Assembly: GCA_046563655.1 (NCBI GenBank)
Contig: CM102289.1
Location: 5,580,001-5,644,000 of the forward strand
DNA from: Yuukianura sp. NJ FZ-2021
Taxonomy: Eukaryota
Direction: 5' to 3'
DNA: 64,000 nucleotides
Shown: piece by piece, positions 1-35,187 of the stretch
Layout: each line of letters begins with the position of its first letter
Position numbering within the stretch: the first letter of the stretch is position 1
Position numbers and translations under genes: made by a program
The notes under the pieces: generated by a model
Seen by the model: the letters and a program-made list of their open reading frames with translations, nothing else
Databases searched by the model: none
Told to the model about the DNA's origin: nothing

Positions 1-3000
1 CTGAATCCTATCCAAATACTCTCCTGTAACCACGTAACCTACATCACTCGGGGTCAAATAAGTTCTGTCTGTTGACCTCAAAAGGTCAATGACCTCTTCA
101 AGTGCCTTTTTCATGTAAATTTCAAACTCTACGCTACTTTTCACTCTAAATCCCATCCGATCTCCAAAAACTCCACCAACTACAGAAAGTACCGGATCAG
201 TTGATTCATTTGCAGGATGAATAGTTAATCCTGGAGAATCTTCTAAGATTGACCAATCGTCGTTCGACTCTTTGCTCCTCCCACTCATTACACCCAAGTA
301 GTTGAACAATATTGGCGGGAGAGGAACAGACTTGTCGTAGCCAATCAAATGACCGTATCCGAAGCCATGCGATGGTATGGCCCTCAGCGATTCTTTTGTA
401 ATTTTCAAAAGTTGAGCCAAGTTTTGTGTTCCAGCGATCTCCAATTTCACCGGAAACTTGGTTGTAAACCATCCAACAGTTCTGGAGTGGTCAACCGCCC
501 CTATGTCTTCTCTACCATGCCCTTCAAGTGTCACAAAAAATTCGGTGGAAGGAAACGCCCGTGACAATGCCAGTCCAAGAGCAGTTAGCAGAACATCGTT
601 CATTTCCGTATGATATACTCTGTGGGCATCAGACAACAAAAATGTCGTTGCAGCCTCGTCTAACGTAAAAGTAGCTTCGATTGCCGGTTTAGTGCCAAAT
701 TCAATTTTAGAGTTCATTGACCCCTGGGTCAACTGCTTCCAGTATGTCAGTTCTTCCGGATGGTCATTGGCATAACTCGAGCATGCGTCGACCCATTGTC
801 TGTAACTTGCTGTTTTTGGACCTAGACTCTGACCATGGTAAGCCGATTGCAGATCTTCCAGAATAATTCTCCAGCTAACTGCGTCTACAACCAAATGATG
901 AGCAGCGAGGAACAATCTGGCTCTTCCAGAATCATATCCATGAATGTAGCCTACAGTAAAGACACGCCCTTTTTCAAGGTCAAAAGAATCCTGCCAAGAT
1001 GTTAAGATTTTGCCCAACTCTGTGTCATTCTTCACTTTTTTGATATCAAGTACACGCAGCATGACCAATCTCGCCTCATTGTACGTCTGACTCTGTTGAC
1101 CTTGGAAGCTGGACCCCAGTATATCATGATGAGCCAAAACAGCGTGCAGTGCAGTAACTAATTTTTGTTTTTCCAGCGCTGGAACGTCAACAAGAAAAGC
1201 CTGATTCCAGTGCCCGGGAATTTCGAATTCTTTGGACCAAAACCAAGATTGAATTGGCAGTAGCGGAAAAGTGCCTTTGAGAATTCCAGTTTCACCAGAG
1301 AATTTGATTGGTTCAAAAGAATTAACATGGCAGAAGACATTGTCCGTTAGAGCCTGAATCGTTCTAAAGTCAAAAATATTTTTCACAGTTACGGAGAGCT
1401 GAAGTTGTTGGCGCATGCGTCCTGCTGCTTGGATACAAAGAATGCTGTCTCCACCCAAATAGAAGAAACTGTCTGTGATACCAACCGATTCCACTGGAAT
1501 TTTGAGCAACCCTGACCAAATTTCAGCAATGTCCAGCTCTGTTTGATTTCTCGGAGCCACTCGGACTCTTCCTTTCGTCACCAACTGAGATTCGGGATTC
1601 GGCAATTGTCGCCGATCCACTTTTCCGCCAGGAGTAAGTGGGACTTTGTCAATTTGGACAAACAGGGTAGGAATCGCATATGACGGTAGATGTCTTCCCA
1701 GTTCGATTCTCACTTCCTCTTCGTTTTTTACTTTTCCAACGTAGTAACCAATCAGAATCGTTCTTTCCTCTCCGTCATTGTTTTTACGCCCTTTGACCTC
1801 TACAACTGCTGCGTCAATTCCTGGAACGAGCTTCATGAAATGTTCTACCTCGCCTAACTCAATTCGAAATCCGTTGACCTTGACTTGAAAGTCTTTTCTG
1901 CCTACAAATTCCAGTTGACCTGTTACGCAGTCGCGGAAAACAAGGTCACCACTCTTGAATAATCTACCATTCCTGCCTACTTTTTTGTCCTCTTCAGTCT
2001 GAAACGGATTTGGAACGAAAGATTTGTCAGTCAATTCCGGCAAATTCAAATATTCCCGCGCCAAAGACTCTCCGCCAATGAACAGTTCGCCCAAGCAACC
2101 ATCAGGCAGAGCAGAGCCATTGGAATTTAAGACATAAAAAGTGTTATTAGCCAATGGGAAGCCAAGCACCGAGCTACGACTCCCCTCTATCTTGGTGTTT
2201 GTTACACACACTGCAGCTTCCGTCGGACCGTAGCGACTCATGACCTTGACCTTGTCTGACCAGTAGGCCGCTAAGGGTGGACTGAGCGTCTCTCCGCCAA
2301 TGACAATGCTTTCAAGGTCTGGATAAGTTTCTTTTGGCAGCGATGGCAATAAAGCAGGACGCGTATGCAAATGCGTTATTTTGTTGTCCTTGATGTACTT
2401 GGCCAAAGCGGGCCCTTCAAGAGCCAATTCCGAAGTGAGAAGATGAACAGTTCCACCAAGCAGAAGTGACGCAAAGATGTCAAGCGTAAAAGCATCAAAT
2501 GCGTAAGAAGAAAAGCTGGTCGTGATTGGTCGACGCCCTTCAGAGTATGTCGTAGCCTGGAAAGCTGCCACGGTATTCAAAATCGCTGAATGTTCAACGA
2601 GAATGCCCTTTGGTTTTCCCGTTGTCCCTGAAGTATAAATGCAATAAGCCAATGCCGATGGACTAACTTCTGGAAGTCTTATGGAGGGGTCACCAGAACT
2701 CTTCACGTCAATTAGCACAAGTTCAGCACAAATTGATTTCAAAAATTCAAAATTCCCGGAATTCGTAACCGCCAAAACGCGTTTTCCACTTTGTCCAACG
2801 TCTTTTATAATCAACTCAATACGTTCTTTAGGTGCTTCGTCATGAATCGGCACATAAGCCTTTCCCGCCAAAAGAACGCCCAAAATCCCAACGACAACTT
2901 CTTCATTTCTGTCCAAATACAGCAAAACTAAATCCGAATTTGAAACTCCCGCTTCCAAAATTTTGCGCGCCAAGGATTTGCTTCTCTCGAGAATATTAGC

Positions 3001-6000
3001 ATAAGAAAAGCTGATTCCATTGAAAACTATTGCAGTCGTGTCAGGAGTCGACTCGGCTTGACGAGCGAACCAATCAGTAACGGTGGTTTGTTTCCGCACA
3101 GGCGTGACGAATTTATTACGTTCAACAATCGTTTTAGTCAGCTGATCTTTGTTCATAAAAGAAAGCTTTTTGATTGGAAGCTGAGGATAAGAACCCGTTT
3201 GAGTCAAGATATGAGCAAAAGTGGCGCCAAAAGCAGCAATACCCTCTGAACTAAAAATGTTTGAATCGTATTTCAAATTGAAATACAACTGATCTTTGCT
3301 TTCTGTAACAATCAGGCTGAGCGGGTAATTCAAATGTTGGCGCGTACCAAGATGGCGCGGCATCAGTGAAGATGAAGTGACTTCAGGAAAGTTTTCATAA
3401 ACCAGTAAAGTTTCAAAAAGCCGTCTGCCCTGTTTCTGAATTTTGGACAAATCCGTGGCGGCAAATTGATTCGCTTTCAAAATCGTTTCTTGCAAAATTC
3501 TCAACGCCTCAAGAATAGAATGCTCTGAAAGTTCGTCATGATCAAATACTACTGGAAGTGTGTTGATGTACAGCCCAACCGAAGCTTCAATTCCCGGAAC
3601 GGGTAGAACACGACCGGAAACTGTCGTACCGACTACTGTCTTTTCACTCCTCCCAAATACACTCAGTGTTTTGTGCCATGCGTACTGCGTCGCAGTGTTC
3701 AAGGTCAAACCTTCTCGTTGCAACTTTTTCAAAATTTTCGTCTGACCTTTGCCTAGTTCAAAAATGTATTCGGCTGGAGATGTCACTGAACTTTGTTCGA
3801 GCAAATCTAGAGCACGACTGACATTGTGCTGAAACAAACCACGCAGGTCTAGCTGATCTGTCGCCTCGCATTGACTCCTGACCTGTTCCCAGTATTGCCC
3901 ATGTTCATTATTTACAACGGAACGTTCTAAATGTGCTTGTGCCTCTTCATAAGCAAAATCGACTTCAACCAAATCATGTTTTTCTGTTCCCAAGCACTCC
4001 TCATACTCGTCGTGAACAAAGTCCAGAAGGCGTGTCACACTCCATCCGTCCAAAATTCCATGATAGAAACTCAGCACAAAAACGGCTCCACCATCACCAT
4101 TTTCAATCAAAATTGTTCGAAAAAGCCCGGGTTTTTCCAAATCATAAGCCGTTGACCTATCAACTCCCAACACATTTTCAAGCCTCACCGACTCGTCTTT
4201 ATCAAAATGAGTCCAACAAAGTGAAGCCGATTTTTCGATAATTTGCAGGATCTCACCCGTCGTCCAATCAAATCGGAGGCGAAGAGAAGGAAATTTTAAA
4301 ATGGCGCGTTCCCAACATTTTTGCAATTTGAGGGCATCAGGAGCCTCTGGATAGTCAAGCAAAATTTGAACTGTGTAGGCGGGATCGTCAGGGTAAGTAA
4401 GCGAATGAAATAGAATTCCCTGTTGAAGTGAATTTGCTTTGTAGACTCCTACAATTCCGGACTCCGAAGTATTTTCTAAACGAGCCAAATTCAAATCTAC
4501 GTTGAGCGGAACATGAATCACAGATTTGATTCTGATGAGCGCGAAAAGATTTAAACAAAATTTGCTCAATCCTTCCTTCCATGTGGAATAAAAATTAAGT
4601 TCTCCATTTTCGTTGACAGTTGAATGAAAAAAGTGAGATGCAAAAGAAGGTTTGATGACAAAATGACCTTGACCTTTGCCCTCACTGTAAACAACGACTT
4701 GTTCCTGTTTTTCGAAAAAGTTGACCCCTGAAATTTCTCCCTTTGAACAGTCGCCAATGTTACCAGATTCGGGCATTTTGAATATCCCGCACTTTCTTTG
4801 TCCATTGCTCCCAACAGTAACGTAAGGAACTTCTGCGCGTGAGTCAAATCCAGAAATCGTGGCCAAAAACGCCGTCAAAATAATTTCAGAAGCCATCATG
4901 TCTCGTTTTTCAATGGCAAACAATGAGCGTGTTTCATCTTCAGTGAGAGCCAATGAATGAACAGGCTTGAGGTCAAAGGTCATTGACCCCAAGCTACTTT
5001 TGAGCGGAAAAAATGCTGGCAGTGTTTGACCATAAAGTACTGAAAGTAAGTTTTGTACAAAAGAACCCGCACCTTTTTCACTACAAACCTGCTTGTTGAC
5101 GACACAAAACAGTCGTCCGAAACCGTCCGAAAGCCCGCGAATCGTTCCGACAAAATACCCGGGTTTCTCTTGACCTACGCAACCCGCCCACTCTGAATAC
5201 AATTCCTTCACCTCTTGCTCTTCCATGAACTGGACATTGGCCGAAGAGCAGTTGACCTCTCCCGGGTACTCACTGTACGTCATAGTTTTAATGTCAAAGA
5301 TGTAGTCCAGTTGAGGAAAGTTTTTCAAAACTGAACTTACTGCGGTTTTTACAGCTTTGAGTCCCTGAACGTTAGCAGTCTGGACCAAAAACACATGAGC
5401 AGTAGGGTAGAGGCCAACGATCTCAGCATCAACATATCCAGTGTTACGCTGCCCGGCTGTTTCAGAACCGCCCAATGCTTCAATGTGCTCAGCTAGGCTT
5501 TTGATGGTTACGTAATCAAAAACGTCTCTAATGTTCACCTGAATGCCTACGTCTTTGCTAAGTCTCGAGGCGACCTGAATTGCTGAAATACTGTTTCCGC
5601 CTAGACTAAAAAAGTTGTCAACTAAACTAATTTGGTCTGATACGCCTAGTACTAACTTCCAAACATTTCTAATGTGTTCCTCCAGCGCAGTCAAAGTTTC
5701 AGAAGCTGGATACTGACCTTGGTGAGCTGACGGATCAGCCTTCGGCGATTCCTGGTCTGAGTCCTGAACGTGGTCTCCGTGGAGCGATGGCAGTTGTAGA
5801 GTTGATTCAATTGGCAGTGGCAGTAAAGTCGTTGGGTGAATAGCGTCAACCTTGGGGTCAAGTCCAGCAGAGCGCAGTTTCTCAATGGTGCTCAAAAAGT
5901 GTTCCAATTGGTTTCCGTGAAGACTCGTGGCAGTGAGACGTGTGATTGAGTGATGAAGAGAAGCAGCAAGAAAACTCTGAAGTACCGGTTTTCGTCCAAT

Positions 6001-6884
6001 TTCGAGTACGATACTTCCCTTCGGAATTTTTAGGAGACAGTCGTAGAAGAAGTAGGGCTGAGCTAACTGATCAATAAAGTAGTCGGCATCGACGACAAGC
6101 GAAGTGCTCTCTTGTTCGTGTCGCTTGGAAATCCATCGTTGAGTTTTCGTCAACGGAGTTGGCAGTACGGGTAGACCAAGGGGTTGGCAGAACTTGCGGT
6201 AGCCTTCAGTGAGACGCGTATGAGTGGGATGTTCAATTCCATCAAAAGCTACGTTGAAGATTCCCCGGTTGTTGAGATTGAGCAAATATTCGTCCATGAC
6301 TTCGGGATAGCCTGAGATAGTTACGGCCTTCGGGCTGTTTTGAATTGCGAGACAAACCCCTTGAGGTACATCGACCTTTGCCTCTTCCCATGACATTCCG
6401 ATGAGAGCCATTTTGAGCGGTGGGAGCGTTGCATTAGTAACGATGGACTCAGCAATACTCGCTAGGCCGATAGTTACTTCTTGAGTGAACGTTCCATCGG
6501 CATACGCTGCTCCGTACTCTCCGGCAGAAAATCCAATGAGTCCATCAAATTCCAAACCAAGTTCCCGTAGCAAATCCACAATTGCAACCTACAATATATT
6601 TAACATTGAATGAATTTATTGTACCGACAACAAATACGTAATTAGTCATGCAACGTTGCTTGAATTCTTACCTGAAATGCAGCTCGACAAGCAATGATAT
6701 CCTGAACGTCTGGTACGCCCCTCAGAACTCGCAAGAGATTGACCCCTTTCTTGTTGAGAATGGCATGAGACTTGAGAATAGATGCTCGGAAGACAGGAAG
6801 TTCCATGAAATCGTGGACAGAAACATACTCATCGCCAAATCCCGAGAAAACTAACCAAAATGGCGGACGAGATACAGACCCCAT
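1..6884 (-). CDS. Hybrid acyltransferase-NRPS (AT-T-degenerate E-C-A-T-E...), 3' end beyond window
   Basis: Exon 1 6884-6672 (MGSVSRPPFWLVFSGFG), phase-0 GT-AG intron 6671-6589, exon 2 6588 to <1 read by hand with no stop (2196 codons; absent from the ORF track because no stop lies in the window). Motifs: AT GFSAGE; T DNFFSLGGNSI (~5590); C FYHGILDGWS (~4050); A YTSGTTGKPKG, YGPTE, FKSGDL, QVKVNGFRIELGE, PGGKVDRR; T SFFYLGGDSI (~1450); E HHLVVDAVSW, TLEGHGRE, SRTVGWFTT. Confidence 0.93.
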
Positions 6885-8417: not shown

Positions 8418-11400
8418 ATGGTAAAAATTTTGTTGAATTTGTAAGCTTAACGTGGCTTGTATACTGTATTGATTTAATACCACTTTTTCGTGATCTTATT
8501 TAGGCGGAAACCGGAAAAGGAAATGTTTGTCCGGAGAAGAAGGCTTCATTTTTCAGTCGATTGTTTTTGCTGTGGGTATTGGAACTCAAGGGATGGAAAG
8601 AGAAGTTGACCCCAGCAGACCTTTGGGATCTCGATGAAGAAAATACAAGCAAAGTCCTCACGTCTCAGTTTCATTCGAAGTTTTATAACGGCAAAACGAC
8701 AACGAAAACTTTATTTATGACAATGCTCAACCTGCTTGGAAACTTGCTGCTTGCCGTCGGAATCCTTCAAATTCTCGAACAAATCGCTGGGTTTAGCTCT
8801 ACACACTTTTTCAAGTACGAAATTCAAAATAGCTTCGATAAAACTGCAAACAGCTAAATACTATGATTATTTTTTAACTTTACAATTAAATGTTGATTTC
8901 ATGTGTTTAGATTACTTCTTGGGACCGGAGAGTCAAATGTATCACAAGGGATTACTTACCTTTTACTAATGTCCGCCGTATCTGCTGCCAAAACTGTGCT
9001 GAATAACCAAGGTGCTTACCAACAGGGTACTGCCACTCTCCGTGTCAGATCCTACGTTATGAATTCCATATACAACAAATCCCTGACGATGGCAAACTAT
9101 CGACGAAGTGGTAAAGTTGACCGCCGCTTCTACCTATGTAATTAAGTTTTGAGCGAATGTCAACTGATTGATTATTTGTAATTTTAATTCCGACAGAATC
9201 ATCGATGGGTGAAATTGTGAACATGATGACAGGTGATTGTGTGGCAATTGAACGATTTTTCTCGTGTTTTCATCTATCCTGGAGTATCCCACTCACCATC
9301 GTAGTTTCTCTCTATTTCCAGTGGAACCTTCTGGGTCCTTCTGTCCTTGCAGGTTTCAGTGTCATGCTCATTTTAATGATTGTCAACGTTATCGTCGGAA
9401 ATCTGGCGACCAGTCTTTCTCAACAAGAAATCAAGGATAGAAGCCAACGCATCACGCTCATGTCCGAAATTCTTAGTGCCATTCAGGTGATGTCTAAAAA
9501 ACGAAATTTGAATTATACATAAAGAGAAACCTACTTAAAACTTGTTCCACACAGGAAATAAAACTGTACACACTGGAAAACGTATTTTCTGGTCGAATGG
9601 AAGTTTTACGAAATCAGGAAGTGACGTCCATTCTTAAATCAGCCCTCATTACCACAGCTCTCAACTTCTGCTGGTCATTTTCACTATTTTTGGTAAGACG
9701 TTTTTGTTTTTGAAAATAAGGATTCCGAACATTTGATTTCATATTGTTTCCTTAGATGTCGATCGCTACTTTTGTAACTTACGTGTGGATAGATGATAAC
9801 AACGTTCTAGATGCTCAGAAGGTTTTTGTGTATATGGTTTTGGCCAACTCCATGAGCGGTCCTTTGAAGTCTTTTCCAGCTGTCGTGGGAACAATTATCC
9901 AGGTAAAGCATTTCCTTTCCTAGCCTAACATTTTACATCATGTTTTTCTTCTTATTTCAGGCCAGAATTAGCTTGCAAAGAGTCCAAAGTTTCTTACGTT
10001 CGGCGGATATAGTTCCAGAAGTCCCTCCAGGAGAATCATGCAAAGAAAACCCATGTCGGTTTAGTCAAGAAATTGTAACAATTTTGCTAATCGCACTTTT
10101 GAGGTTAATTTTAATTTTTTTTTCTTGTTTGTGTAACAGACGCTGTTGACATCACAGATGGTCATTTCACTGTGGATACTTTTCATTTACGGAGCATCAA
10201 TGTCCGGGTTAAGAAGGGATCTTTGGTGGCCGTACTTGGAAAATCTGGATCCGGTAAAAGTTCTCTTCTTTCTGCCATGAATAGAAGTCAGCATGTGATC
10301 CGTGCCAGTGGCCATCAAGAGCTAAACGTAAATTATCTATTGCTGCTTATTCAGAAATTGTATTCATTACTAAAAAGTAGTATTTCACATTTCTCAGGGC
10401 GACAGTTGCCTCCTGACGCAGAGTCCGTTCATCCTCAACGATACAATCGAGTCTAACATTTTGTTTGGCCTTCCAATGCAGCGTGGGAAGTATCAGCGAG
10501 TGGTAGACGCATGCGCCCTTACGCCTGACCTTAAATCACTGCAGGACGGAGATCAGACATTGGCTGGAAACAAAGTAAATTTCGAAGTTGGTTAAAAGTT
10601 ATACTTTGATTAGTATTGATTTACCTTTTTGACTATGATTGCAGGGAAGTAATTTGAGCGGAGGACAACGGCAGAGGTAACCACGATGTACTAATTATTT
10701 AACGGTTAATAAGTTTTTACGTGATGATCATTAATTTTGTGATCTGCCTTCTAAGGATTGCCTTGGCTAGGGTGTTGTACAGGGACGTTGACATTTACTT
10801 TCTGGATACCCCACTGTCAGCAGTGGACGGACAAGTGGGGAGGGAGATCTTCAAGAAAGTAATTGGACCGCAAGGAATGCTCCAAGGAAAAACGCGGGTT
10901 GTGGTAGCCTCGAGTCTGCGTGATCTTGAGGCTGCCGATCAAATTCACGTTCTAGCTAACGGAGAAATTGTCAAGAGTGGAACGTTCAAAGAAATTGCCG
11001 AGTGGGAGGTAAGTTATGCAGTACCAGAAGCTAAATCCCCTGTTCGAATAACTCTCAAGGTCAAGGTTCAACTAAATCAATGGAAGTTTCTTTCAAAATT
11101 TCTTGCATTTTTAGGCCGAACTTGAAATCTTTGAAACCGACCCATCATCACCAAAAAACGAACCAAATCCGGGAAACACTACAAATGTTGATACTCCCGC
11201 CTCAATCAAGGATCCACGTAAGATTTCAGTCGACAAAAAGGAAAAAATGCAAAAGGTAATTAGATGTTTAAAAACCTTTAACTGTAAGTTCATACTAGTC
11301 TATCGATTTACATTTTTCAGGGTGTGGTTGATTCGCTGGAGAGGAAGGTAACGATGAAATTGCTTGATCGAGAGGATGAAAACGTTCTCTCTTCCAAATG

Positions 11401-16836: not shown

Positions 16837-17694
16837 CTGTATAGATTCTAAAATGCTACGTTTATGAATCTGGAATATCAGAACTTGATCTCGACGGGGT
16901 CATTGAACGCTACTTGTCTGCGGGAGAAGCTTCTTTTTGCAAACGACAAAGCACGGGCTTGTCTGTGCTTGATAAATAACAAGTTTTAGATTCGCAAGTG
17001 TTTTACAAGTAAACCAACTTGAGTAACTAAAAAAATTTTTTTAACAAGAAAACGATAAAAATTTAACAGTTTTTTCCGCACTTTTTAGTGGGAATTTTGT
17101 GAAGGCGTTTTATTTTTGTTTTCTGGTTGATTAGGATGATTAGAATGCTGCATTGGGAATCTTTGTACTAGCAGGTCATGGTTGGGAAAATTCAGCTTTG
17201 TCCGTGACCTCTGGTTACTCTAATGACATGTACATGCCTGGAGTCGTGCCAGTGACCTTGCTAGCGGTGAACACGTAAAGTCTCATCATAGAATGGAGCC
17301 TAGGCATGAGTCCTGTCATTACACACCTCGACGGAATTCTTCATGTTGTCCAACCAGTTTTTTCCACTTTAAAGTAAAAAGAAGATGAAGATGATGCACA
17401 AGTGGAAAGCATTAAAACAAAAAACCAGCTCTGAATTATTCATGATTTTTTGGAAACTATCAAAGGAATACGCAGAGGTACACAGTAGAATCTGCACAGA
17501 TTCAAAATTTCTCTTCCTTCCCTCCACGATTTGGCCATATTACATAGTTGTAAACAGTGGCGCACCAACCAAACATTCAGGTTTAGTGCGTTAGTGCAAC
17601 TGATCTTCGAGGATTGCTAAAGTCCAACATAAGTTAGTCAGAGGTCACAACTTGTACAGAACCTGTGCAGAGGTCAAGAGTCAACGAGCCAATA

Positions 17695-24088: not shown

Positions 24089-25890
24089 TTATTGTCTGCG
24101 TTTGAGTGACAACCACAGGCCGCTGAGTGGTTTGAAATGGGCGCCACTGGATCCTGCTCCCGGCATTACCGTTTTGGCGGAAGGTTCCAACTTGAACTTC
24201 AAAATCAAATTGCTAAGTGCTGCTTTCGTTTCAGCCAGGGCAAATCTCGTTGCAATGCAACTACGCGGCCCAATACCTAACAAAAGGCATAGCTATAATC
24301 AGCAATTACTAACTACTAGATTAAAACAAGAATTTTAATTAAGAAGGATTTACCAAAAGGAATGTTCGTGTATTGATTGATTTTTCCTTTGTTTTCTGCA
24401 TTGAACCTCTCGGGGTCAAATTTGTCAGGATCGGAAAAGTGACCTGAAATAATAAAATAACACTTCAACTCAAGAAATTTTCATTCTTTTTTTAAAAAAG
24501 AGTCTGAAAACCTTACGTTCATCTCGTTGTAACCCATACTGAGGTACAATGATGAGTGTGTCTTTCTCAATAGTTAATTTAGAGTTGGGCACTTTGAAAG
24601 GCTTGACCGTCATGCGTTCCAGTATAATGCTGTTGGGCCACTTGCGTAGAGTTTCCTGGATGACTTTGTCCAAGTATTGTAAGGTCATCACAGTATCATA
24701 GTCCAACTTCCCAGCACCTTTGACCTCCGCTTCCTTCAGTTCTTCGTACAATTTTTGTTGTACTTCTGGATGGAACGCCAACTCTTGTGCAGCCATCACC
24801 AGCTGAGATACGACTGTCGTCACGCCTGCAAAGAAAAACAAAAGACACTGCGCAAGGACCAAGTCCTCTGTCAGCTGAACGCGGCCATGCGAACTCTTGA
24901 TTTCCTGCTGTTTTTCAAAATTACTAAGGTCATCGGAGTCAGGCGGCGAGCCAGTAGTAGGTGGGGCAGTACTCGTTCGAGCATCCATCAGCAACTGCAG
25001 CAAATCGTCTCGTTTTTGCCCCGTTTTCTCTCGATGTTCAATTGTCTTGTTGATGACTTGTCGAAAAAATCTACCGGCTTCTTGATCCGTGATTGGAATG
25101 TTTAAAATTTCAAAAATTAGAGGGAACGTTAGACGGAGCTTGAAAAGAACTTGTTTCTTGAATGATGCAAATTGATTTTGAAATCTTCTGGCGTATTTTC
25201 CGAATTCGGATTCCTCTTTGGAGAAACTGGACGTTTCGAGTCCAAAGGCACAGGATGAGATGACATCCATTGCATATCGGGTCATAAGGTCATGGAATTC
25301 TGGATCTTGTCCAAGAGCAACTTCTTGGTCAATGAATTTTGTTAACTTTTCCGATGCATCGGTGAAGATGGAATACATTCTGCGAATCTTTCCGGAGGAA
25401 AAGGCGGGAGTTAGAGTAGATCTCAAATCCTTCCAGAATTGACCTTTGGTGTGTGTTAGGATTAGACCAAAAAGAGGATCAGTTTTGTCCAAGTTGGCAA
25501 CACGACGGTCCACAAAGCAATCGAAATCTTTTACCTTAAATTTAAATGGAGTTTTTTTAAGTTATTAAAATTTTCAAAATTGAATGATTTTTTTAAAGAG
25601 CCGAAACTAACCATAATGTGCTTGATGAGATCTGGGTCAGTGACGTATAGCACTGGCAATGAGCCTTCCATGTACCCGGTGTACCCACCACACCGTTTTT
25701 TCTTGATGGTATCGTACACTAGAAATTCAAATTCGTGTCGCGGGACCTCCCATCTTGATAACTTCAGTTTTGCCGGGTCAAAGACTTTGACTCCTCTTCT
25801 CTGCCAGTATGTCTTCGCTTTGAACCAATTTTTGAATTTGCCGCTGAAAAGCAGCAGGGTAATCACGACAGTTACTACGAGCCAGAACAT
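24089..25890 (-). CDS. Cytochrome P450, CYP3 clan (CYP6/CYP9-like), 4 exons
   Basis: N-terminal TM anchor, WKDLR, ETLRKW (ExxR), FDPERF, spliced heme motif PFGIGPRSCIA; I-helix FFFAGVTTV. Confidence 0.92.
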
Positions 25891-26254: not shown

Positions 26255-28154
26255 TCATTTCCTGTACTCCACATTAACCAGAAGTGGGCTTCCAAGAGCA
26301 AATGCCTGAGGGGTTTGGCTACAGCGGCTAAATTTAAACTTTTGCAAAAGTTGAACTACGGTGATTTTCAATTCAGCTTTAGCCACTCTGTAGGCAATAC
26401 AATTCCGTGGTCCTGCGCCTGCGCATTAAATAAAACATTTCAGTGCCTAATATTAATGACCTTTGACCTACGAATGACCTTGACTTACCAAATGGAAGGA
26501 ATGTGAAAGGATTTCGCTTCTTTATGTTCTCAGGACTGAATCTATCGGGATCAAACTTTTGCGGGTCAGGGTAGATTTCTGAAATTTCAAATTTTAGTAA
26601 TTTTTGAGGTTCAACTTTTTAACAATTTTTTTCAGCGTAAGCTGCGATGCCGGATTTACCTGGATCATGATGAATCGCATGAATTGGAACAATGATCTGC
26701 GTATTCCGCGGAATAGTGACATTGTATTTTGGCGAATGCACTGCCGCATTTGTCCTCCTCTCTAGATGTAGGACTCCATACTTTCGAGTACTTTCCTGAA
26801 TTACTTGTTCCAGGAAGCCTAATTGCAAAATGGAGTCCAATGGCCAGGTAGGTTCGTTGTTCTCCAAGGTTTGAATTTCCCGGAACAACTTTTCTTGTAT
26901 CTCTGGATTGTTGACGAGTTCAAAAATGACGCAAGTGAAGCCTTCTAGCATATTACTGGACTGTGCAGTGAACAGGCTCATGGCACTGCCCACCATGTGC
27001 TCTTCAGTTGGCACGAACTTTGAATTAGTGTAAACCAAGGCCTTGTTAACCGTTCCGGTGCTTACATCCCTATTGTCATCAACTTCTTCCTGAAAACAAA
27101 GCAGAGAAGATGTCAAGAAAATTTAAACCGTTTTTTTCCACTTTTCACTTTTTATAGCATTTTAAAATTTTAAGAAATCGTTGACCTGCTCAGTGTTGCC
27201 CTTCTTCACCAAAGTCATCATTCGTCCAACAAAGGTGTTCCAGTTGGACATGACGCCATCTTCAAGATTCATTCTGCACTGTCGCAGAACATCTCGGAAG
27301 AAATTTACAGCCTCTGGGTTAAGGGCATGCACTTTCAAAAAATTCCCCACCCACGGATACTTCAAAATCATGCGCCATTTCCAAGTTTGAAATGCCGAAG
27401 AAGGGGCTGCGTGCATTCTGCCGGCAAAGGAGAAAAAGCCACCGGGTGGGTCATCGTAGGCTCCACTTTTCGTCCCATAAATAATTTGAACTGCGATGTC
27501 GGTGACGAAGCGATGAAACAACTTTCTCATGTCCACGGGTTCGTTTCCTGCAGCCTCCGAAATGAGCCGAGTCAGCTCTCGAGCGGAATCGGATATCATT
27601 GGACACATTGCTCGGATTTTTCCGGTAGTGAACATTGGGTTGATTGCTGATCGGATGTCTTTCCACTCTTGGTTTTTAGCATGAAAGAGAGCCCTTCGTG
27701 CTATGGGGTCACTCAACTCTGCAGAATTGACACGACGGTTGACACAACTCATGAAGTCTTTAACCTTGAGTAGGAAAAATACAAAAAAAAATGGTAAAAT
27801 GGTGTGACCTTGCCTAAGAAAAACCCGGAGATGAAATTTGAACCCATGACAGATCGATTGGCTTACAAAGATTTGTTCCAGAAGATCGGTTCCGTAAACG
27901 TAGAGAAGTGGAACGCCAGTTTCAAAAATTCCGGCAAACTCCGCGTGACCTCTGCGCTTCATCTCTTTGTACTTGGCAATCTCAATGTCGTAACGCTTGA
28001 AGACTGAATGTTGACCAAACTGGGACAAGCCAAGGGCCTCCGTGTCCACGAAGGGAACATTCCTCCGTGCCCAGTATGTTTCCCGGGGGTCCCTTCGCAA
28101 GTACCACCAAAGTCCGACGATTAAAGCAAATAGTAATACAAATTCCACCAACAT
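26255..28154 (-). CDS. Cytochrome P450, CYP3 clan, atypical I-helix, 5 exons
   Basis: MLVEFVLLFALIV anchor, WKDIR, ESTRKY, FDPDRF, spliced heme motif PFGAGPRNCIA; I-helix LFTAQSSNM. Stop TGA 26255-26257. Confidence 0.9.
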
Positions 28155-28794
28155 TTCACAGGAAGTCCAGAGTACGGTACGTGCGCTAGGTGCAACAGCA
28201 AAACTAGAACTGGCCGCTGCCATGCCGGTTTATTCAAAATCATTTTTTTTTACCAAAAAGGGCAAAACAGGTTCTGAAACGAGAAACATCGTATGAAACA
28301 AGAACGAGATTTGATCAAAACTAAAAAACCGAGATCGAGAGTTTCTGAATTAAAAAAAATTGTTTTCTGTTCATTATAATTTCAATTCTCACATTTCCAA
28401 AAATTCACTAGAAATAGAAACTGAAATAAAGGAATTCAAACCGGTACATTTTTTATTCATTCATTTTATACACATAGCATATAAGGTAGTAATAACATTG
28501 CAGAAAAGTTACTCTTTTACTTCTAAATAAAAAGCAAAAACCAATCACCGATTTTGAAAATACTGAGCAATTTTGCAGAAGCTTGGGTAGTAACATTAGT
28601 ATAAAACTAACCTTTTTGAATGAAGAACTGTGAGTTAATTTTTTTAAAGTTACTTTTCAACTCGAAAAAACAAACGGAATATTTTATGGTTTCTGTTTTT
28701 CTGTTACATCTAATTTTCTTATACTAATTTCACGCATTGCCTCCAGTTTAAAAAGCAGCGTATTTCTCTGGATTTTGTGACAGCTTTCAAAATT

Positions 28795-31700
28795 TTAAAT
28801 GGCAGTAAGCAAATTTTTGGCAACGGCAGTGATTGTTTGTTGTTCTCGAAGTTTACCACGCGGAATGACAATTCCCAACTCCTTCGATAGCCTATTTGTA
28901 ATTTCCAATTCCATGAGGGAATCCATACCATAAAGTGCAAGGGAGTGGCCTCTGTCAATCGCTTCATCATCTGGCAAAGACACGTACATTCTAATGCACT
29001 TCTCAATCAAAGTCTCAAGGTGCCCCAATTTCTCATCTTCTCCCGCCCCCTTAACCTTCAAAACCATTTCAGCCAAAACGTTACGTTTTCCCCCACTGAC
29101 CTCTGTCCCCTTTGTGCGTGACCCCACCGTGACCCCCTTCTTCTGCGCACGCACTTCCGTAAAATACTCATGCAACTTGGGATATGCAACCACTCCCATT
29201 TTTTCTGTGTCGAATCGGAGAATTGTTGCTTGGTCAAGACCTAGGCGCATGGCTCTTTCAAGGGCTGCGATTCCCTCCTTTGGCGTAAACCAGTGGATTC
29301 CACTGCGTTCGGTCAAATACTTGACCTGTTCAGGGGAAATATGATTTACTGCAATGCCGACATCTAACCAACCGCCCCAATTGATACTCGTCGCAGGTAA
29401 CCCCAGCTGATGCACGCGATACTTTGCAAAAGTGTCTAAGAAATTGTTAGCGGCAGTGTAGGCTGCTTGACCAGCAAAACCTACGTTAGAGGCAATTGAG
29501 GAAAAAAGAACAAAATGGTCGAGGTCAAAGGTCAAACTTTCTTCATGTAAATTCCAAGTTCCTTCGACCTTGGACTGAAAAGCTTCTTCAAAGTTAGTTA
29601 CAGAGAGGTCAGAAATTACACCATCTCGTAACAGACCAGCCGAATGGAAGATTCCTTTGAGTGGCGGGAGTTCAGATTTGATTTTTTGAAATAGTTCTTT
29701 CACTCCCGCCTTTTCACCAACATCCGACAGCATGACGACGGCAGAATCACCAAACTGAGCCAATTTGTTCAACACTTCGGGATCAGTCGGTTCTCGCCGA
29801 CCAGTTAAAATTACTTTACCAGCTCCCTGTTCCAGAAGCCACTCGGCAACCACAAGTCCAATCCCCCCAAGCCCCCCTGTGACCAAATAGGAACTCTCGG
29901 CATGAAACAATCTTGTTCGAGAACTCATATGCAGAACGTACTTTCCAATGTTCTTGCCCTCACTCATCTCGTTGAGCGTTCTGGCTAGCTGGTCAACACT
30001 TTTAACCTTGTATGGCATTCCTCTAATGCTTCCAGAAGCTAACAACTGTTCTATTGGAGTCACGTCTCTACCAAGATCCGTCATAAGGTCATAAACACTG
30101 TAGGTTACGTCGGGTCGGAGGTCATTGACCTCCTCTTTAGTCCAAGTATTGAATTTACTCATCTCAACAAATCTCCCGCCACCATTTTTTCGCACAACGT
30201 TCAAACTGGCTTCCTTAAACCCTTCAGCTGTAATCGTGTTTACGACAAGATCAACGCCCTGACCTCCAGTGTCCTTTAGTATTTCTTGTTCAAACCGAGT
30301 GTCAATTGAGTCATAAACGTGTTCAACACCGAAGACAGTGGAGAGGTAAGCTCTTTCTCTGTCACTTCCTGCTGTGGCATAGACAGTAGCCCCGACGTGT
30401 TTGGCCAATTGAATCACCGCAAGGCCGAAACCGTCCGACGCACCGTGAATCAACAAGTGATCACCGCGTTTGAGTTTTCCTGTTTCGTAAACACCGAAAT
30501 AAGCAGTGCAAAGTGGAACCGGGAGAGTTGCGGCTTCGTCGTAACTCATCCAGGAAGGAATGCGTAGGATGCAGGAAGCCGATTCAGGAGTCACGTGACT
30601 TTGAATTTGGCTGGTTTGCTGGAAAGAGCCACAAAGACGATCTCCAATGGCAAATCTACTGCCTTCACCAACCTGTTCGACTATCCCTGCAAAGTCTGTT
30701 CCAGAAACAGCTTTCTCTTGTCCACCAACGTCACTGTGAATGGCAACCTCTAGTGAATTGGGAGAAATGGAGTTGACCTTGATCACTGTGTCAGTGACCT
30801 CGAACGGTTTTAGGAGTTTTGGTTCATAGCGTCTGAGCCCACCGACTCCAGTAGCTGTGAGGCTAAACGGAGCCGCTGGTGGGTGGAACTCACCGGGCAT
30901 GAAGGTGGGATTAAACGGAACAAGACGTGCACAGACAGCTTTTCCTTCACGGATGACCACTTCCCGTTGAATGCCAGCATGACTCACGTGAGCCGTGATT
31001 TGGTGCGCAAGCGCAGAATGATTGTTTGTGTACTCCGTTTGGTCAATGTCAAGTCCAATTGCGTCAATATGTGGATACTCGCTAACAAAAGTTTTTAAAG
31101 CTCCTTGGAGAACTGTTCCCATAAAATTGGAGCCTAGAGATCCTGTCCCGTTCGAAATTGACCCTTGAGATACTGCCACAAATTTCTTTGTTTCTGCAAG
31201 GGAACCAACAAATTTCAGTGTATTCAAAAATCCACCAATCAGATTCTTTGTTACATTTTTGTCCAAATGACCTGACCCCTGAGTAGCTTCGTCTCCCAAA
31301 CCCCAGAGACTCACTACTCCTTCAAGCGTAGGAAATTCCTCAGCCAGCTCTTGGTGGTGGGCCAAATTTTGTGGGTCAAGGGTCACGTGAGAGTAACTAA
31401 AACAGTAGTCTGTATCTGCCAATACTAGCATTGCCCTGACTCCGAGGTCATCCATGATACTCTGTTGAACAGCTTCAGCAAGGGCCTGGACCTTGGTTGG
31501 TGCAAAAATGAGCCAATCAATTGTTTCTGTTTTGTGAATAATCTGCGCATGACCATTGTGAGTCAGTTGGGGAAGGGGAATCCATGATTCTGTGTAAAAG
31601 TCAAGCAGTTGCTGATTGCTTCTTAAATTGGTTTCAAAGTCGGCTTTTGTTGTGATCAGTTGAAGGATTTTGGAAGCGGCGACGAGCGTTCCTTCGCTGT

Positions 31701-34700
31701 CGTACAATTCAGTCGTGTCGGAATTGTTTTTGTCTAACTTAATGTAAAACGGAGCTTTGGCTTCTGATTGGCGTTTGTAAATGTGGCAGTATTCGAATTT
31801 GGCCGGAAGTACAATTGATGGGAAGTTGTTGTAGTGACTGGTTACCGGGTTCATGCAAGTACTATGAATCATGCCATCGAGTGTAGCAGGGTGAATGATA
31901 TGTGCCTCTGCGTCTTCGGGAGTGTTCATTTTGGCGACAGGGAAATCATCAAGGGGCCACAAGGTCGCGACGCTCTGAAACATGTCTTGGTATTCCAGTC
32001 CCGCTTCGGCTGCTTTCGGGTAAAATGCTGCCGGAATGCCTTCCGTGTTGACAAAGGTCATGTCAAGCTTAGGAAGTTCTGTAAGGCGATTGGGCCGTCG
32101 GGGCATTGACCCTGTGAAGTATTTTTCCAAAGTATCTCCCCGTTTGACCCACAAAGTAGCTTCGAGACCGTCAAAATTTCTGCTTTCCTCCAAACTGACT
32201 TCAATTTGGACGGGTTTTCCTTGCTCAAATTCTAATGGTTTGCTGAGTGTCACGTCCGTAACAGAAAGATGTTCGTAGTTGAGGTACTTCTGCGCACTGA
32301 GCAACATGTCAACGAAGCATGCGCCGGGTAAGATATACCTTCCAACCATTTGGTGACCTTTGACAAAAGCCACTTGGGGGTGGGTTAGAGACAAAGTGTT
32401 TTTGAACGTAGGCAGAACAGAGTGGGGAGAACGAAATGCCCACCCCAGGAGGGGGTGAACAAATTCGTTTACTCCAGATCCAGTGTGTATCTGGGGAGCA
32501 ATAGCCAAGTTGTACACTTTGTGATTGAATGGGTAGAAAGGCAGGTCAATGACCTTGGGTTGGTGACCTCCGTGTAACGCTGCCCAGTTGATGACCCCGT
32601 TCCAAGAAGTGTACAATTTAGCCAAACTTTTTAGAATAGTTGGCATTCCTTGAGGGTCAGCTGATCTTAGGCTTGGGCAAAGCGTCAAAGGCTCAGGAGA
32701 TGCTTGTGAAACAAAATTTAGAAGTGCCGGTTGTGGTCCAATTTCAATAAAAATTTTAGGAGCATTTGGCAAATTCAGGACCGTTTTGATAGCTTTTTCG
32801 AAAAAGACGGGCTGACGCATGTTTGAAGCCCAGTAGTCACCGTTGACCTTTGCTTCAACCTCACCAGTAACACTGGACACGAAAGTACAGAATGGTTTCT
32901 TATATTCTATCAAATCAAATGCAATTTTCAAAGAATCCCGAATTTTTTCAATATGTCTGGAGTGAAAAGCGTGAGAAGTGCTGAGCACTTTCATTTTTAA
33001 ACCAGGATTAGACGACAAAACAAAATTTTTGAAAGCTACTAACGATTCCTTGGGTCCTGACACGACACACTGCTCCTTTGAATTTACCGCTGCGAGGTCA
33101 ACCCAGTGACCTTTGACCTCAGTGGAATCAATATTTGCTGAGTTGAACTTTTCTATTAAACTCGTAGCATTTTCCTGACCTGTTCCCACTGCCATCATAC
33201 CCCCTGATTCTAAAGTTTCAACGAGTTCCCCCCGGGCGATAACGGCCTTGAGACCGTCTTCAAACGAAAACGCGCCTGCGCTCGCTGCACAACAAATTTC
33301 ACCCAAACTGTGACCAAGAACCACCGAAGGTCTAATTCCCAGTCCCTCCATCCAGAACTTGCCCAGTACATATTGAATTACAAAAATGGCGGGTTGTCTC
33401 CACTTTGGTCTGAGGTCATCAAAGGTCACTTCATCCTCCCACACAAGTTCTCTAATGCTCTTTCCCAGCATTCCTTTAAACAGAGCTGCGCATGGGTCAA
33501 AAAGAGCCCTGAACACTGGAGATGCATTGTACAGACCCTTAGCAACTTCAAAGTACTCAGCCCCTTGACCCGTAAACAAAAATCCAATAGGATCTGCGGG
33601 TTGACCTGCTACAACATTCACGTCTCCCTCAAACTCGAACTCCGTATCACCCAATTTGTCAATTGCACTGGCACGGTCTCTAGCCAAAATTGCAATTCTT
33701 TTTGAATGATGCGCACGCGTCGTTTGGAGACTAAACGCAACCTCGTCCATTTCTGGAGCATCAGACTCCAGTTTCTGCTTAAGTTTTTCGCAAAGAACTT
33801 CCAGTGATTTTGGCGATTTGGCAGAAATAGGCAAAAAATGAAACGGAACTTTCTGATCTAGCGGTAAACGATTTTCAATTGGAGGGTGGATGTGGGTGGG
33901 TGGAGCTTCGGCTAATACGACTGCTACATTAACCCCCGTTAACCCAAAATTGTTAAAAGCCGTAATCCGGGGTGATCCGGTCGATGGGTATGGAATCGGC
34001 CGTGTAGGAATAACGCCCGGAATTGAGTCAAAATTGATTTTGGGATTTAAATTATTCAAATGAATTTGTGGTGGAATCGTGTTATGTTTGAAACAAAGAA
34101 GTGTGTGGAGCAGACTGTGTAAACCGGACACGGGTAGAGTGTGACCAAAATACGTCTTGGCAGACGTGATAACCAATGGCTTTGGGCGTGGTATTTCAGA
34201 TCCAAACAATTCGACCAACCCGTTCGCTTCTAAGGGGTCCCCAACGGGGGTTCCAGTGCCATGGGCTACCATAAAACCAACGTCACTTGCTTCCACGCCT
34301 GCGTCGAGCAGAGCAGATTTCAGCACGCGCGTTTGAAGCTTTGGATTTGGCGTACCAAAACTTTTGCTGTAGCCACAGTTATTTGTAGCCACGCCTTTGA
34401 CCACGCCCAGAATCCTGTCCCCATCTCTTTGAGCATTTTCGAGTAATTTTACAACAATTACTGCCACGCCTTCGGCTGCAGCAAAGCCAGAAGCACTCTC
34501 ATCAAAAGCCTTACAAGCTTCACCAAATAACGCATCCGGCAAGTTGACTTGATTGCGCAGACGCAGAGTAGTTCCAGCGACGAGGGCCGTTCTGCAGTCT
34601 CCTTTGCGTAGAAATTGAACGGCTTCGTAGAGGGCTGTTCCGGAAGAGGCACAGGCAGTGTCACAAGCCATGTTTGGTCCATTGATACCGAGAAAGAATG

Positions 34701-35187
34701 CCAAAGTCCCTGGATATGCACTCCATTCTGTTCCCAAGTACGAGTACATTCGTGTGTTGTCGGACGTGGCTTCGTGAGTTGTTAGTTGTCGATATTCATT
34801 GTCGCAGATTCCAACGAAGACGCCCGTGTCAGTGTCCCAGAGGCTGGACGGAGGAATGCGAGCATCTTCCAGACTCTCCCAAGCTACTTCGAGGTACATA
34901 CGCATCTGAGGGTCCATGAACTCTGCTTGTCGTCGGTTGAAGTTAAAGAACGGGGCATCAAATTCGTCGACTGGACATGCGAGGTATCCCCTTGGCCATT
35001 CTCTGTTCGCCCATTCCCCCATGTGGTGACGCTCTTCAGGCGGAGAGGAAGTGTGGTTTTCTCCATTGATCATGACACGCCAAAGGTCGTCCAGGGAATT
35101 GGCTCCTGGAAAGCGACAACTTGCCCCGATGATGGCGACATCGAAGGCTCCACGGTACCCTTCATCTAGATGCCCCAAATTGCCCAT
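28795..35187 (-). CDS. Type I polyketide synthase KS-AT-DH-ER-KR-ACP (~2130 aa), single coding exon, no TE
   Basis: KS DTACASS, HGTGT, GHT; AT GHSLG, HAFH; DH HQMVGRYILP, HPATLDG; ER LLIHGASDGFG; KR LVTGGLGGIG, LRD, YTAAN; ACP YGMDSL. First ATG at 35187 follows an acceptor-like ttttcag; the ORF track start at 35256 is TTG. Confidence 0.95.
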   Translation of the reverse strand: MGNLGHLDEGYRGAFDVAIIGASCRFPGANSLDDLWRVMINGENHTSSPPEERHHMGEWANREWPRGYLACPVDEFDAPFFNFNRRQAEFMDPQMRMYLEVAWESLEDARIPPSSLWDTDTGVFVGICDNEYRQLTTHEATSDNTRMYSYLGTEWSAYPGTLAFFLGINGPNMACDTACASSGTALYEAVQFLRKGDCRTALVAGTTLRLRNQVNLPDALFGEACKAFDESASGFAAAEGVAVIVVKLLENAQRDGDRILGVVKGVATNNCGYSKSFGTPNPKLQTRVLKSALLDAGVEASDVGFMVAHGTGTPVGDPLEANGLVELFGSEIPRPKPLVITSAKTYFGHTLPVSGLHSLLHTLLCFKHNTIPPQIHLNNLNPKINFDSIPGVIPTRPIPYPSTGSPRITAFNNFGLTGVNVAVVLAEAPPTHIHPPIENRLPLDQKVPFHFLPISAKSPKSLEVLCEKLKQKLESDAPEMDEVAFSLQTTRAHHSKRIAILARDRASAIDKLGDTEFEFEGDVNVVAGQPADPIGFLFTGQGAEYFEVAKGLYNASPVFRALFDPCAALFKGMLGKSIRELVWEDEVTFDDLRPKWRQPAIFVIQYVLGKFWMEGLGIRPSVVLGHSLGEICCAASAGAFSFEDGLKAVIARGELVETLESGGMMAVGTGQENATSLIEKFNSANIDSTEVKGHWVDLAAVNSKEQCVVSGPKESLVAFKNFVLSSNPGLKMKVLSTSHAFHSRHIEKIRDSLKIAFDLIEYKKPFCTFVSSVTGEVEAKVNGDYWASNMRQPVFFEKAIKTVLNLPNAPKIFIEIGPQPALLNFVSQASPEPLTLCPSLRSADPQGMPTILKSLAKLYTSWNGVINWAALHGGHQPKVIDLPFYPFNHKVYNLAIAPQIHTGSGVNEFVHPLLGWAFRSPHSVLPTFKNTLSLTHPQVAFVKGHQMVGRYILPGACFVDMLLSAQKYLNYEHLSVTDVTLSKPLEFEQGKPVQIEVSLEESRNFDGLEATLWVKRGDTLEKYFTGSMPRRPNRLTELPKLDMTFVNTEGIPAAFYPKAAEAGLEYQDMFQSVATLWPLDDFPVAKMNTPEDAEAHIIHPATLDGMIHSTCMNPVTSHYNNFPSIVLPAKFEYCHIYKRQSEAKAPFYIKLDKNNSDTTELYDSEGTLVAASKILQLITTKADFETNLRSNQQLLDFYTESWIPLPQLTHNGHAQIIHKTETIDWLIFAPTKVQALAEAVQQSIMDDLGVRAMLVLADTDYCFSYSHVTLDPQNLAHHQELAEEFPTLEGVVSLWGLGDEATQGSGHLDKNVTKNLIGGFLNTLKFVGSLAETKKFVAVSQGSISNGTGSLGSNFMGTVLQGALKTFVSEYPHIDAIGLDIDQTEYTNNHSALAHQITAHVSHAGIQREVVIREGKAVCARLVPFNPTFMPGEFHPPAAPFSLTATGVGGLRRYEPKLLKPFEVTDTVIKVNSISPNSLEVAIHSDVGGQEKAVSGTDFAGIVEQVGEGSRFAIGDRLCGSFQQTSQIQSHVTPESASCILRIPSWMSYDEAATLPVPLCTAYFGVYETGKLKRGDHLLIHGASDGFGLAVIQLAKHVGATVYATAGSDRERAYLSTVFGVEHVYDSIDTRFEQEILKDTGGQGVDLVVNTITAEGFKEASLNVVRKNGGGRFVEMSKFNTWTKEEVNDLRPDVTYSVYDLMTDLGRDVTPIEQLLASGSIRGMPYKVKSVDQLARTLNEMSEGKNIGKYVLHMSSRTRLFHAESSYLVTGGLGGIGLVVAEWLLEQGAGKVILTGRREPTDPEVLNKLAQFGDSAVVMLSDVGEKAGVKELFQKIKSELPPLKGIFHSAGLLRDGVISDLSVTNFEEAFQSKVEGTWNLHEESLTFDLDHFVLFSSIASNVGFAGQAAYTAANNFLDTFAKYRVHQLGLPATSINWGGWLDVGIAVNHISPEQVKYLTERSGIHWFTPKEGIAALERAMRLGLDQATILRFDTEKMGVVAYPKLHEYFTEVRAQKKGVTVGSRTKGTEVSGGKRNVLAEMVLKVKGAGEDEKLGHLETLIEKCIRMYVSLPDDEAIDRGHSLALYGMDSLMELEITNRLSKELGIVIPRGKLREQQTITAVAKNLLTAI

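Follow-up and report, generated by a model that had tools for sequence, protein, structure and literature searches.

Horizontally acquired polyketide synthase (PKS) and nonribosomal peptide synthetase (NRPS) genes are already in print for soil arthropods, and the locus described here is a variant of that phenomenon. It lies in a 64,000-nucleotide stretch of the genome of Yuukianura sp. NJ FZ-2021 (contig CM102289.1, assembly GCA_046563655.1; the whole stretch is called the window), where an NRPS-type gene (gene 1) and a PKS gene enclose six further genes. In Folsomia candida, 36 clusters were predicted by antiSMASH (30 type I PKS, 3 NRPS), most genes being classed as transfers, and a beta-lactam cluster (ACVS/IPNS/cmcI/cmcJ) was described (PMC5490193). 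NRPS and NRPS-PKS genes have been surveyed in rotifers, nematodes, springtails and a spider mite (PMC10531068), an acquired springtail PKS, OXA62418.1, has been reported (PMC10764717), and an oribatid mite expresses bacterial-type ketosynthase (KS) domains, for which the authors had no reference arthropod PKS cluster (PMC7542773).

Like the springtail loci, the present one places microbial-type PKS and NRPS genes, clustered and expressed (here at least the PKS), in the nuclear genome of a soil arthropod (PMC5490193, PMC10531068); unlike them, it joins a PKS and an NRPS with cytochrome P450 (P450) and ABCC transporter genes of host type and holds a host/microbe domain fusion, a combination that is absent from the clusters described in the accessible portions of those reports. 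In the literature searched, neither a fusion of a fatty acid synthase (FAS) acyltransferase with an NRPS nor an arthropod cluster of PKS, NRPS, M-type methyltransferase, P450 and ABCC genes was found, the Folsomia cluster table, which might list a similar locus, lying outside that search. Because it has no close match among named proteins, the locus is not one of the published springtail loci. The nemamide genes of Caenorhabditis elegans are unlinked. Their products, PKS-1 and NRPS-1, and the synthases of bdelloid rotifers are likewise megasynthases with which animals make, or are predicted to make, hybrid polyketide-peptides (PMC10531068, PMC11258130). An open question is whether animals possess true polyketide or nonribosomal peptide clusters, and by what route these arise; this locus, which is compact, intact, expressed at least in part and present in two sequenced organisms, allows a direct test.

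Synthase and methyltransferase genes

The two synthases stand out on the minus strand as long frames free of stops, 1..6588 (2196 codons) and 28795..35268 (2157 codons). The GC content of the window is 36-47%; in DNA of 44-47% GC, frames of this length rule out a chance origin. The first 35.4 kb hold eight genes in the order NRPS-type, ABCC, methyltransferase, major facilitator superfamily (MFS), ABCC, P450, P450 and PKS. Between 6.5 and 29 kb, 19 of the 148 stop-to-stop pieces of at least 55 amino acids matched the Pfam families ABC, methyltransferase, MFS or p450; the other matches, RMC1_N and DEAD_2, came from two pieces on overlapping frames, fell below the cut-offs and are taken as chance. 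No unrelated or housekeeping gene was recognised among these pieces between the synthases.

An earlier note, made from the letters alone, had named these eight genes in these positions and this order with no housekeeping gene among them, and the Pfam families bear it out on both counts. It had also placed the left end of the locus beyond the window, and indeed the frame of gene 1 has no stop before base 1. Its extent for the block stood in part: the PKS start codon is at 35187 as proposed, while the right limit moves outwards, the unit reaching at least 35.4 kb with an intron in the 5' untranslated region (5'UTR) and a leader exon.

The domains of gene 1 are as follows (AT, acyltransferase; PCP, peptidyl carrier protein; C, condensation; A, adenylation; E, epimerisation).

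6672..6884, minus strand: exon 1 of gene 1, ATG at 6884; its first 71 residues, the N-terminal part of the AT
6589-6671, minus strand: intron of 83 nt, GT at 6671 and AG ending at 6589, joining in phase to the long frame
5755..6588, minus strand: animal FAS-type AT (MAT-like) with post-AT linker, the first 278 residues of the long frame; matches positions 71-290 of the Pfam Acyl_transf_1 profile
5482..5676, minus strand: first carrier domain, PCP type, GGNS motif; Pfam PP-binding, residues 305-369
4450..5478, minus strand: orphan region of 343 residues (371-713), perhaps a decayed condensation-like domain that lacks the His motif
3145..4449, minus strand: C domain with YHxxxDG motif; Pfam Condensation E 2.5e-52, profile 3-450 of 456
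1597..3069, minus strand: A domain; Pfam AMP-binding at 1174-1514, TIGR01733 at 1195-1596
1324..1536 (approximate bounds), minus strand: second carrier domain, PP-binding, GGDS motif at residue 1712
1..1296, minus strand: E domain, residues 1765-2196, from PDB matches and E-type motifs; its frame runs off the left edge

On its domain homologies, gene 1 is a chimera of an animal FAS-type acyltransferase and bacterial-like NRPS modules. The earlier note had called it an NRPS; the C-A-T-E modules agree with this, and a pure NRPS it is not, given the N-terminal acyltransferase. Over 278 residues including the linker, the AT matched mouse, pig and human FAS with E values of 7.5e-36 to 8e-34 and the sea-slug FAS-like PKSs EcPKS1/2 with 1e-32 to 1e-29; its matches to the microbial PKSs DEBS, LovB and PpsA were at 1.8e-9, 5e-8 and 1e-6. 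The bit scores were 127 for mouse FAS, 40 for DEBS and 35 for LovB, and identity to the AT of the neighbouring PKS is 24% (E 1e-5). An Atlas feature search, used as a lead only, placed a MAT cluster on top that is 97% Eukaryota, with Arthropoda commonest (0.98; 208 of 256 features). Exon 1 alone, a short piece, gave no Pfam match; the set for the long frame was a partial Acyl_transf_1, two PP-binding, two Condensation and one AMP-binding.

Aligned to mouse FAS, the gene 1 AT retains the Ser/His dyad (Ser581 and His683), as in the MAT of animal FAS and FAS-like PKSs. It differs from these in standing at the N-terminus of an NRPS without a KS, in having Ala at the Arg606 position and in its serine motif, GFSAGE, where Phe replaces the His of GHSxGE. 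No KS was found upstream of gene 1, either by tblastn with the KS-AT part of the PKS, which returned only the PKS itself, or by Pfam among the pieces at 6645-8361. In mouse FAS the carboxylate of malonyl is bound by Arg606, and acyl groups without a carboxylate are favoured when this residue is lost. The AT should therefore prefer non-carboxylated acyl groups; judged from the alignment it should be active, and malonyl is probably not its substrate.

The C-A-T-E part shares 35-37% identity with NRPSs of Bacteroidota and others (37% at most) and 31-35% with those of rotifers and tardigrades. Among proteins of 1207-3843 residues, the 120 most similar to gene 1 all lack an acyltransferase domain, which sets the rotifer NRPSs, at 31-35% identity, apart from it. 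The closest solved structures to the first carrier domain are the PCPs of PvdL, LgrA and TycC, and those to the C domain are McyB (8.7e-37), then the first C domain of PvdL (4.6e-32). The A domain passes the TIGR01733 cut-off (324.9 against 317.4 bits), has its core motifs, with an Arg immediately before YGPTE, and matches LgrA (3e-153) and GrsA PheA (1.4e-80). For the last domain, E-domain chains of PvdL, TycB, GrsA (PCP-E) and TycA matched at about 1e-50, as against 5e-8 for a plain C domain (LgrA), so that the epimerisation domain is a genuine one; the D-amino acid inferred in the earlier note is supported to the extent that this domain is present. The arrangement of acyl loader, carrier and C-A-T resembles the first module of PvdL, which initiates a bacterial lipopeptide, and the first carrier and C domain match PvdL itself. 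It differs in that the loader is an animal FAS-type AT and not a fatty acyl-AMP ligase, and in the orphan region between carrier and C domain.

The orphan region has no Pfam match at E<=1 and no PDB match at E<=10, and in a BLASTP comparison with the neighbouring C domain the best colinear piece had an E value of 0.98. A phmmer search of 1.84 billion representatives returned one match, to a tandem-repeat protein, which was judged spurious, and a single-sequence AlphaFold2 model was unusable (predicted local distance difference test score 30.9). In the Atlas search, again as a lead only, 29 of 30 feature matches were Condensation clusters (0.96; 132-138 of 256 features); a degenerate condensation-like domain is thus possible.

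The PKS and the methyltransferase are encoded as follows (DH, dehydratase; ER, enoylreductase; KR, ketoreductase; ACP, acyl carrier protein).

28795..35187, minus strand: type I highly reducing PKS, KS-AT-DH-ER-KR-ACP, with an intronless coding sequence, ATG at 35187 and stop at 28795-28797
35205..35373, minus strand: spliceosomal intron in the PKS 5'UTR, GT at 35373-35372, pyrimidine tract, AG ending at 35205; leader exon from 35374 upstream
13858..15444, minus strand: stand-alone methyltransferase of NRPS M-domain type, exons 15444-15084 and 14990-13861, stop codon 13858-13860
14991-15083, minus strand: methyltransferase intron, GT..AG

The Pfam order in the PKS is ketoacyl-synt N and C, Acyl_transf_1, PS-DH, ADH_zinc_N, KR and PP-binding. 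The stop follows directly on the ACP, and there is no thioesterase. Residues 43-2151 align with residues 7-2094 of mycocerosic acid synthase (9d2z, E 5e-180), human FAS being weaker (1.9e-124). The match to the Pks2 model NF041183 has an E value of 3e-217 and 724 bits, far under the cut-off of 2400 bits, so that the PKS shares the Pks2 architecture without being the same enzyme. With mycobacterial mycocerosic acid synthase/Pks2 it has in common the domain order, the end-to-end alignment and the lack of a thioesterase; it differs in an identity of about 30%, in the HAFH motif of its AT and in being animal-encoded with a spliced leader. HAFH is usually linked to malonyl, not methylmalonyl, units. 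All motifs scanned for were present: the KS Cys and two His, the AT GHSxG, the DH HxxxGxxxxP, the KR Tyr and NADPH motif, and the ACP Ser.

Among 5.8 billion proteins the best relatives of the PKS are two metagenome proteins (58% identity over 99% of the query and 54% over 43%), followed by bacterial type I PKSs at 29-35%. Eleven of 80 PKS-related metagenome loci (L001, L002, L003, L005-L008, L010, L013, L018 and L032) carry one contig prefix. They include PKS paralogues at 58, 54 and 45% identity, that of L002 lacking DH and ER, which suggests that a related organism in the metagenome sample has a whole family of such PKSs.

The methyltransferase matched Pfam Methyltransf_12/11/25 (13861-14994, minus strand). 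Splicing removes its single in-frame stop and restores S-adenosylmethionine-binding motif I. Its sole PDB relative is 5wmm_A, annotated 'NRPS' (chain residues 566-844, E 1.1e-21), an adenylation domain interrupted by a backbone N-methyltransferase. The window gene shares the alignment over those residues and differs from 5wmm in forming a gene by itself, which has a start codon, an intron and an N-terminal extension; its product would have to act in trans. Both exons align to one continuous M domain within NRPS genes of the bacterial-like loci L054 and L064, found in metagenomes, each of which has a PKS, an NRPS and an embedded M domain. On these matches the methyltransferase is a domain of the NRPS backbone N-methylation type set free as a gene, its intron having been gained later. 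We know of no use of an M domain outside an NRPS. The label N-methyltransferase given earlier agrees with this homology to 5wmm_A, L054 and L064, by which the target atom is predicted. The microbial type claimed for the synthases is supported by the end-to-end likeness of the PKS to mycocerosic acid synthase and by the 35-37% identity of the NRPS to those of Bacteroidota.

Integration and transcription in the animal genome

The synthase genes are integrated in an arthropod nuclear genome; this conclusion is solid, as it follows from introns, host-like codon composition, an independent DNA contig bridging animal-type and microbial-type genes, and spliced PKS RNA. Spliceosomal introns are present in gene 1 (6589-6671), in the methyltransferase (14991-15083) and in the PKS 5'UTR (35205-35373). 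The GC content at third codon positions (GC3) is 0.41 and 0.44 in the two synthases, as compared with 0.425 in the flanking host exons, and the relative synonymous codon usage (RSCU) of each synthase correlates with that of the host exons at 0.71.

The stretch from 26 to 36 kb was found in six public runs, organism A, a possible source of the assembly, being set aside for independence. In a DNA run of organism B from a different study (X4), all 30 bins of the 20-40 kb interval were covered, and the identity of the locus is about 93%. A contig of 2101 nt from this run spans from P450 number 2 (27001) to the 3' end of the PKS (29107) and differs at 113 of its first 1680 letters. An assembly chimera, which the earlier note had listed as grounds for rejecting its proposal, is countered by this contig crossing the P450-2/PKS junction and by the introns within the synthase genes.

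Eight contigs of the metatranscriptome run X6 fall on the PKS, and two of these reach >=99% identity. One contig links 35203 to 35374, and canonical intron edges lie within one base of that joint; the PKS is thus transcribed and spliced by a eukaryote, since one of its contigs is joined across a canonical GT..AG intron. Between 20 and 40 kb, no X6 contigs fell on the P450s, the second ABCC gene, PKD2 or intergenic DNA, which at a depth of 2-9 is no proof of silence.

Upstream of the PKS, DNA contigs of organism A skip 66-87 bases (35268-35335 and 35818-35906) and carry other letters instead; these differences are indel alleles in the leader/promoter region. An apparent 16.6-kb deletion allele (21437/21440 to 38063/38064) was rejected as an artefact of 22-25 letters of A/T-rich low complexity at both sites.

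One pathway or neighbouring genes

The genes between the synthases, apart from the methyltransferase, are two transporters of the ABCC family, a partial MFS gene and two P450s.

9172..13487 (Pfam-supported exons; true start further left), plus strand: ABCC (MRP-type) full transporter 1, multi-exon, six ABC_membrane/ABC_tran pieces
15925..16836 (3' limit approximate), minus strand: truncated MFS transporter gene, first half with about six helices, ATG at 16836
18476..22727 (Pfam-supported exons), plus strand: ABCC (MRP-type) full transporter 2, multi-exon, five ABC pieces
24092..25561, minus strand: P450 number 1, CYP3 clan (CYP9/CYP6-like), two pieces, Pfam p450 E 1.2e-43 and a heme-region exon
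26258..28229, minus strand: P450 number 2, a divergent paralogue, four p450 pieces

TIGR00957 (MRP) was the best model for three of three exons tested in transporter 1, which are colinear on the profile (411-509, 1084-1189 and 1188-1367), and for three of four in transporter 2, also colinear, CFTR (also ABCC) being best for the fourth; these assignments are of single exons, to which whole-protein cut-offs do not apply. The two transporters are colinear with each other at 24-50% identity across matched pieces, and are therefore not recent duplicates. In organism B the word depth over 21334-22667 is 53-59, against about 2-14 elsewhere, and one contig backs up by 713 (22411 to 21699), which suggests that this part of transporter 2 is multi-copy or rearranged there.

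The two P450s are 27-29% identical, and the N-terminal exon of number 1 is probably further right. The large exon of number 1 has 42 relatives: the top four are metagenome proteins (72, 55, 46 and 45% identity), and the named ones are Tribolium CYP9e2-like/CYP9Z6 (35-37%), then Drosophila CYP9h1 and moth CYP6B, all named matches being arthropod except one plant P450 (E 1.6e-5). These likenesses point to the P450s and ABCCs being the animal's own gene types, and the host-type origin assigned to them earlier is upheld by the CYP9/CYP6-like and MRP-like matches and by their introns. Since P450 number 1 is CYP9/CYP6-like and the transporters are MRP-like, both with introns, the host is identified, by homology, as an arthropod.

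The MFS_1 match lies at 16249-16899 (minus strand). The protein is 52% identical over 180 amino acids to that of an MFS gene downstream of the PKS in L001. Nothing in the window matches the later exons of that L001 gene, in keeping with the half-MFS reported before, and the window gene may be a remnant.

We consider the chance slightly better than even that all eight genes serve a single pathway leading to an exported lipopeptide, plausibly one that is N-acylated, N-methylated and oxidised and contains a D-residue. The PKS would iteratively assemble a reduced acyl chain from malonyl units and, because it lacks a thioesterase, would keep the chain on its ACP. The N-terminal acyltransferase of gene 1 would shift that chain, or an acyl-CoA, to the first carrier domain, the C domain would couple it to the amino acid selected by the A domain, and the E domain would flip that residue to the D form. 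Modules past the window edge would lengthen the peptide, the free M-type methyltransferase would N-methylate a peptide bond in trans, the two P450s would oxidise the product and the ABCC pumps would export it. The cluster itself would have been put together within the animal lineage, with the M domain freed from an NRPS and gene 1 formed by a fusion of host and microbial domains.

Several findings are consistent with this scheme. A release domain is missing from the PKS, and the first domains of gene 1 are an acyl loader and a carrier (AT-PCP), followed by a C domain. The product of Pks2-family enzymes is passed to a condensation-type acyltransferase of the PapA family; here, too, the chain may pass to a condensation-type catalyst, which gene 1 offers. 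Three microbial-type genes lie inside 35 kb with nothing unrelated recognised between them, and every core motif of both synthases is intact. In L001, too, an MFS gene (52% identity) follows the PKS relative (58%) on the same strand. A common origin of the PKS, NRPS and M domain is plausible, because L054 and L064 hold all three together.

Other observations weigh against a single pathway. The transfer from the PKS ACP to gene 1 is a postulated step, the roles of Ser581, His683 and Arg606, described for the mouse MAT, are mapped here by alignment, and gene 1 carries the 343-residue orphan region. Anchored on the core motifs, the pocket of the A domain gave no confident match to a known substrate code. 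Gene 1 is incomplete in the window, its frame leaving at base 1. The MFS gene is truncated, and the RNA contigs fall on the PKS alone and come from one study. Linkage in other genomes covers P450 number 2 and the PKS in the close relative (about 93%) and the PKS and MFS genes in L001; no relative of the NRPS with flanking DNA was found, and for the NRPS, methyltransferase, P450 and ABCC genes the metagenome scan returned no relative closer than those in bacterial-like loci. In L001, the one more distant relative with flanking DNA, no P450 lies between the PKS and the MFS gene, so that the neighbouring P450s are not partners of ancestral standing. Arthropods have large tandem arrays of P450 and ABCC genes for detoxification, and chance adjacency is therefore possible.

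Several of these points would also be expected if the genes were neighbours and not partners, the PKS and NRPS having been acquired and being functional in separate pathways, with the P450 and ABCC genes as chance members of tandem families between them; foreign DNA and fast-evolving families might, for instance, gather in the same permissive region. We regard this as a possible but doubtful explanation. The restriction of RNA to the PKS agrees with it, though at low depth and weakly, as does the L001 order of PKS relative and then MFS with no P450 between. The low identities of the P450s (27-29%) and ABCCs (24-50% across matched pieces) are like those of old family arrays, and the antiSMASH clusters of Folsomia candida are mostly single-synthase ones (30 PKS, 3 NRPS; PMC5490193). 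Independent genes, on the other hand, would leave it to coincidence that the PKS without a release domain and gene 1, with its acyl-loading didomain and C domain, supply each other's gap, that a third microbial-type gene, the NRPS M domain, lies 7 kb from the NRPS, and that no unrelated gene was recognised within 35 kb.

That the synthases are decaying relics, acquired long ago and now non-functional, with residual transcription and no product, is improbable. The truncated MFS gene, the Tyr in place of the first His of the C-domain motif, the GFSAGE in place of GHSxGE in the gene 1 AT and the 343 residues without a recognisable family signal fit such decay, but 13 kb of coding sequence runs without a stop or frameshift, all catalytic residues are present, the transcript is spliced, and the locus has a counterpart at about 93% DNA identity in a second organism. 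A contaminant or assembly chimera, in which bacterial or fungal synthases had been misjoined to animal DNA, is effectively refuted: although the nearest named relatives of the PKS and NRPS are bacterial, identity to any bacterium is only 29-37%, GC content and codon choice resemble those of the host, spliceosomal introns interrupt gene 1, the methyltransferase and the PKS leader, gene 1 contains an animal-type domain, and independent DNA data bridge the P450-2/PKS junction.

Returning to the single pathway, a more specific history can be put forward tentatively, at somewhat under an even chance: the animal would have grafted its own FAS acyltransferase onto the acquired NRPS to accept the chain of the acquired thioesterase-less PKS, split off the M domain, and recruited its own P450s and ABCCs. 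If true, this would be the first animal cluster shown to be a de novo assembly of host and microbial pieces, even at the level of single domains, and the lipopeptide would be of a kind new for arthropods. Megasynthases, once acquired, would on the evidence of the fusion in gene 1 and of the freed M domain go on to be re-engineered in animal genomes and not merely kept, a natural case of the module grafting attempted by synthetic biologists, with a bearing on the evolution of chemical defence in soil arthropods.

The right flank

Among 125 pieces scanned with Pfam, the flank at 37-63 kb contains intron-split animal genes, including a polycystin-type (PKD) channel. Also present are a cytochrome-b5-reductase-like gene, two Cys-loop receptor ligand-binding exons, two Methyltransf_FA genes, a cytidylyltransferase and two short-chain dehydrogenases. 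The PKD channel, the two Cys-loop exons and the GT..AG introns in the cluster genes bear out the earlier reading of the DNA as animal.

The reductase-like gene (40384-41618, minus strand; FAD_binding_6 and NAD_binding_1) lies 5 kb past the PKS, beyond the channel gene. It is conceivable as a redox partner of the P450s and sits outside the block. At 43506-48513 on the minus strand, long open frames of 250, 136, 305, 211, 311 and 153 amino acids match no Pfam family at E<=0.001 and may represent a large gene or a mobile element. The Methyltransf_FA (farnesoic acid O-methyltransferase-like) domains belong to two adjacent genes at 53611-55622 (minus strand). The short-chain dehydrogenases are tandem single-exon genes on the plus strand (59138-60004 and 61838-62767), and the short-chain dehydrogenase beside the PKS in the bacterial-like locus L054 is a weak match (27%) to the first of them.

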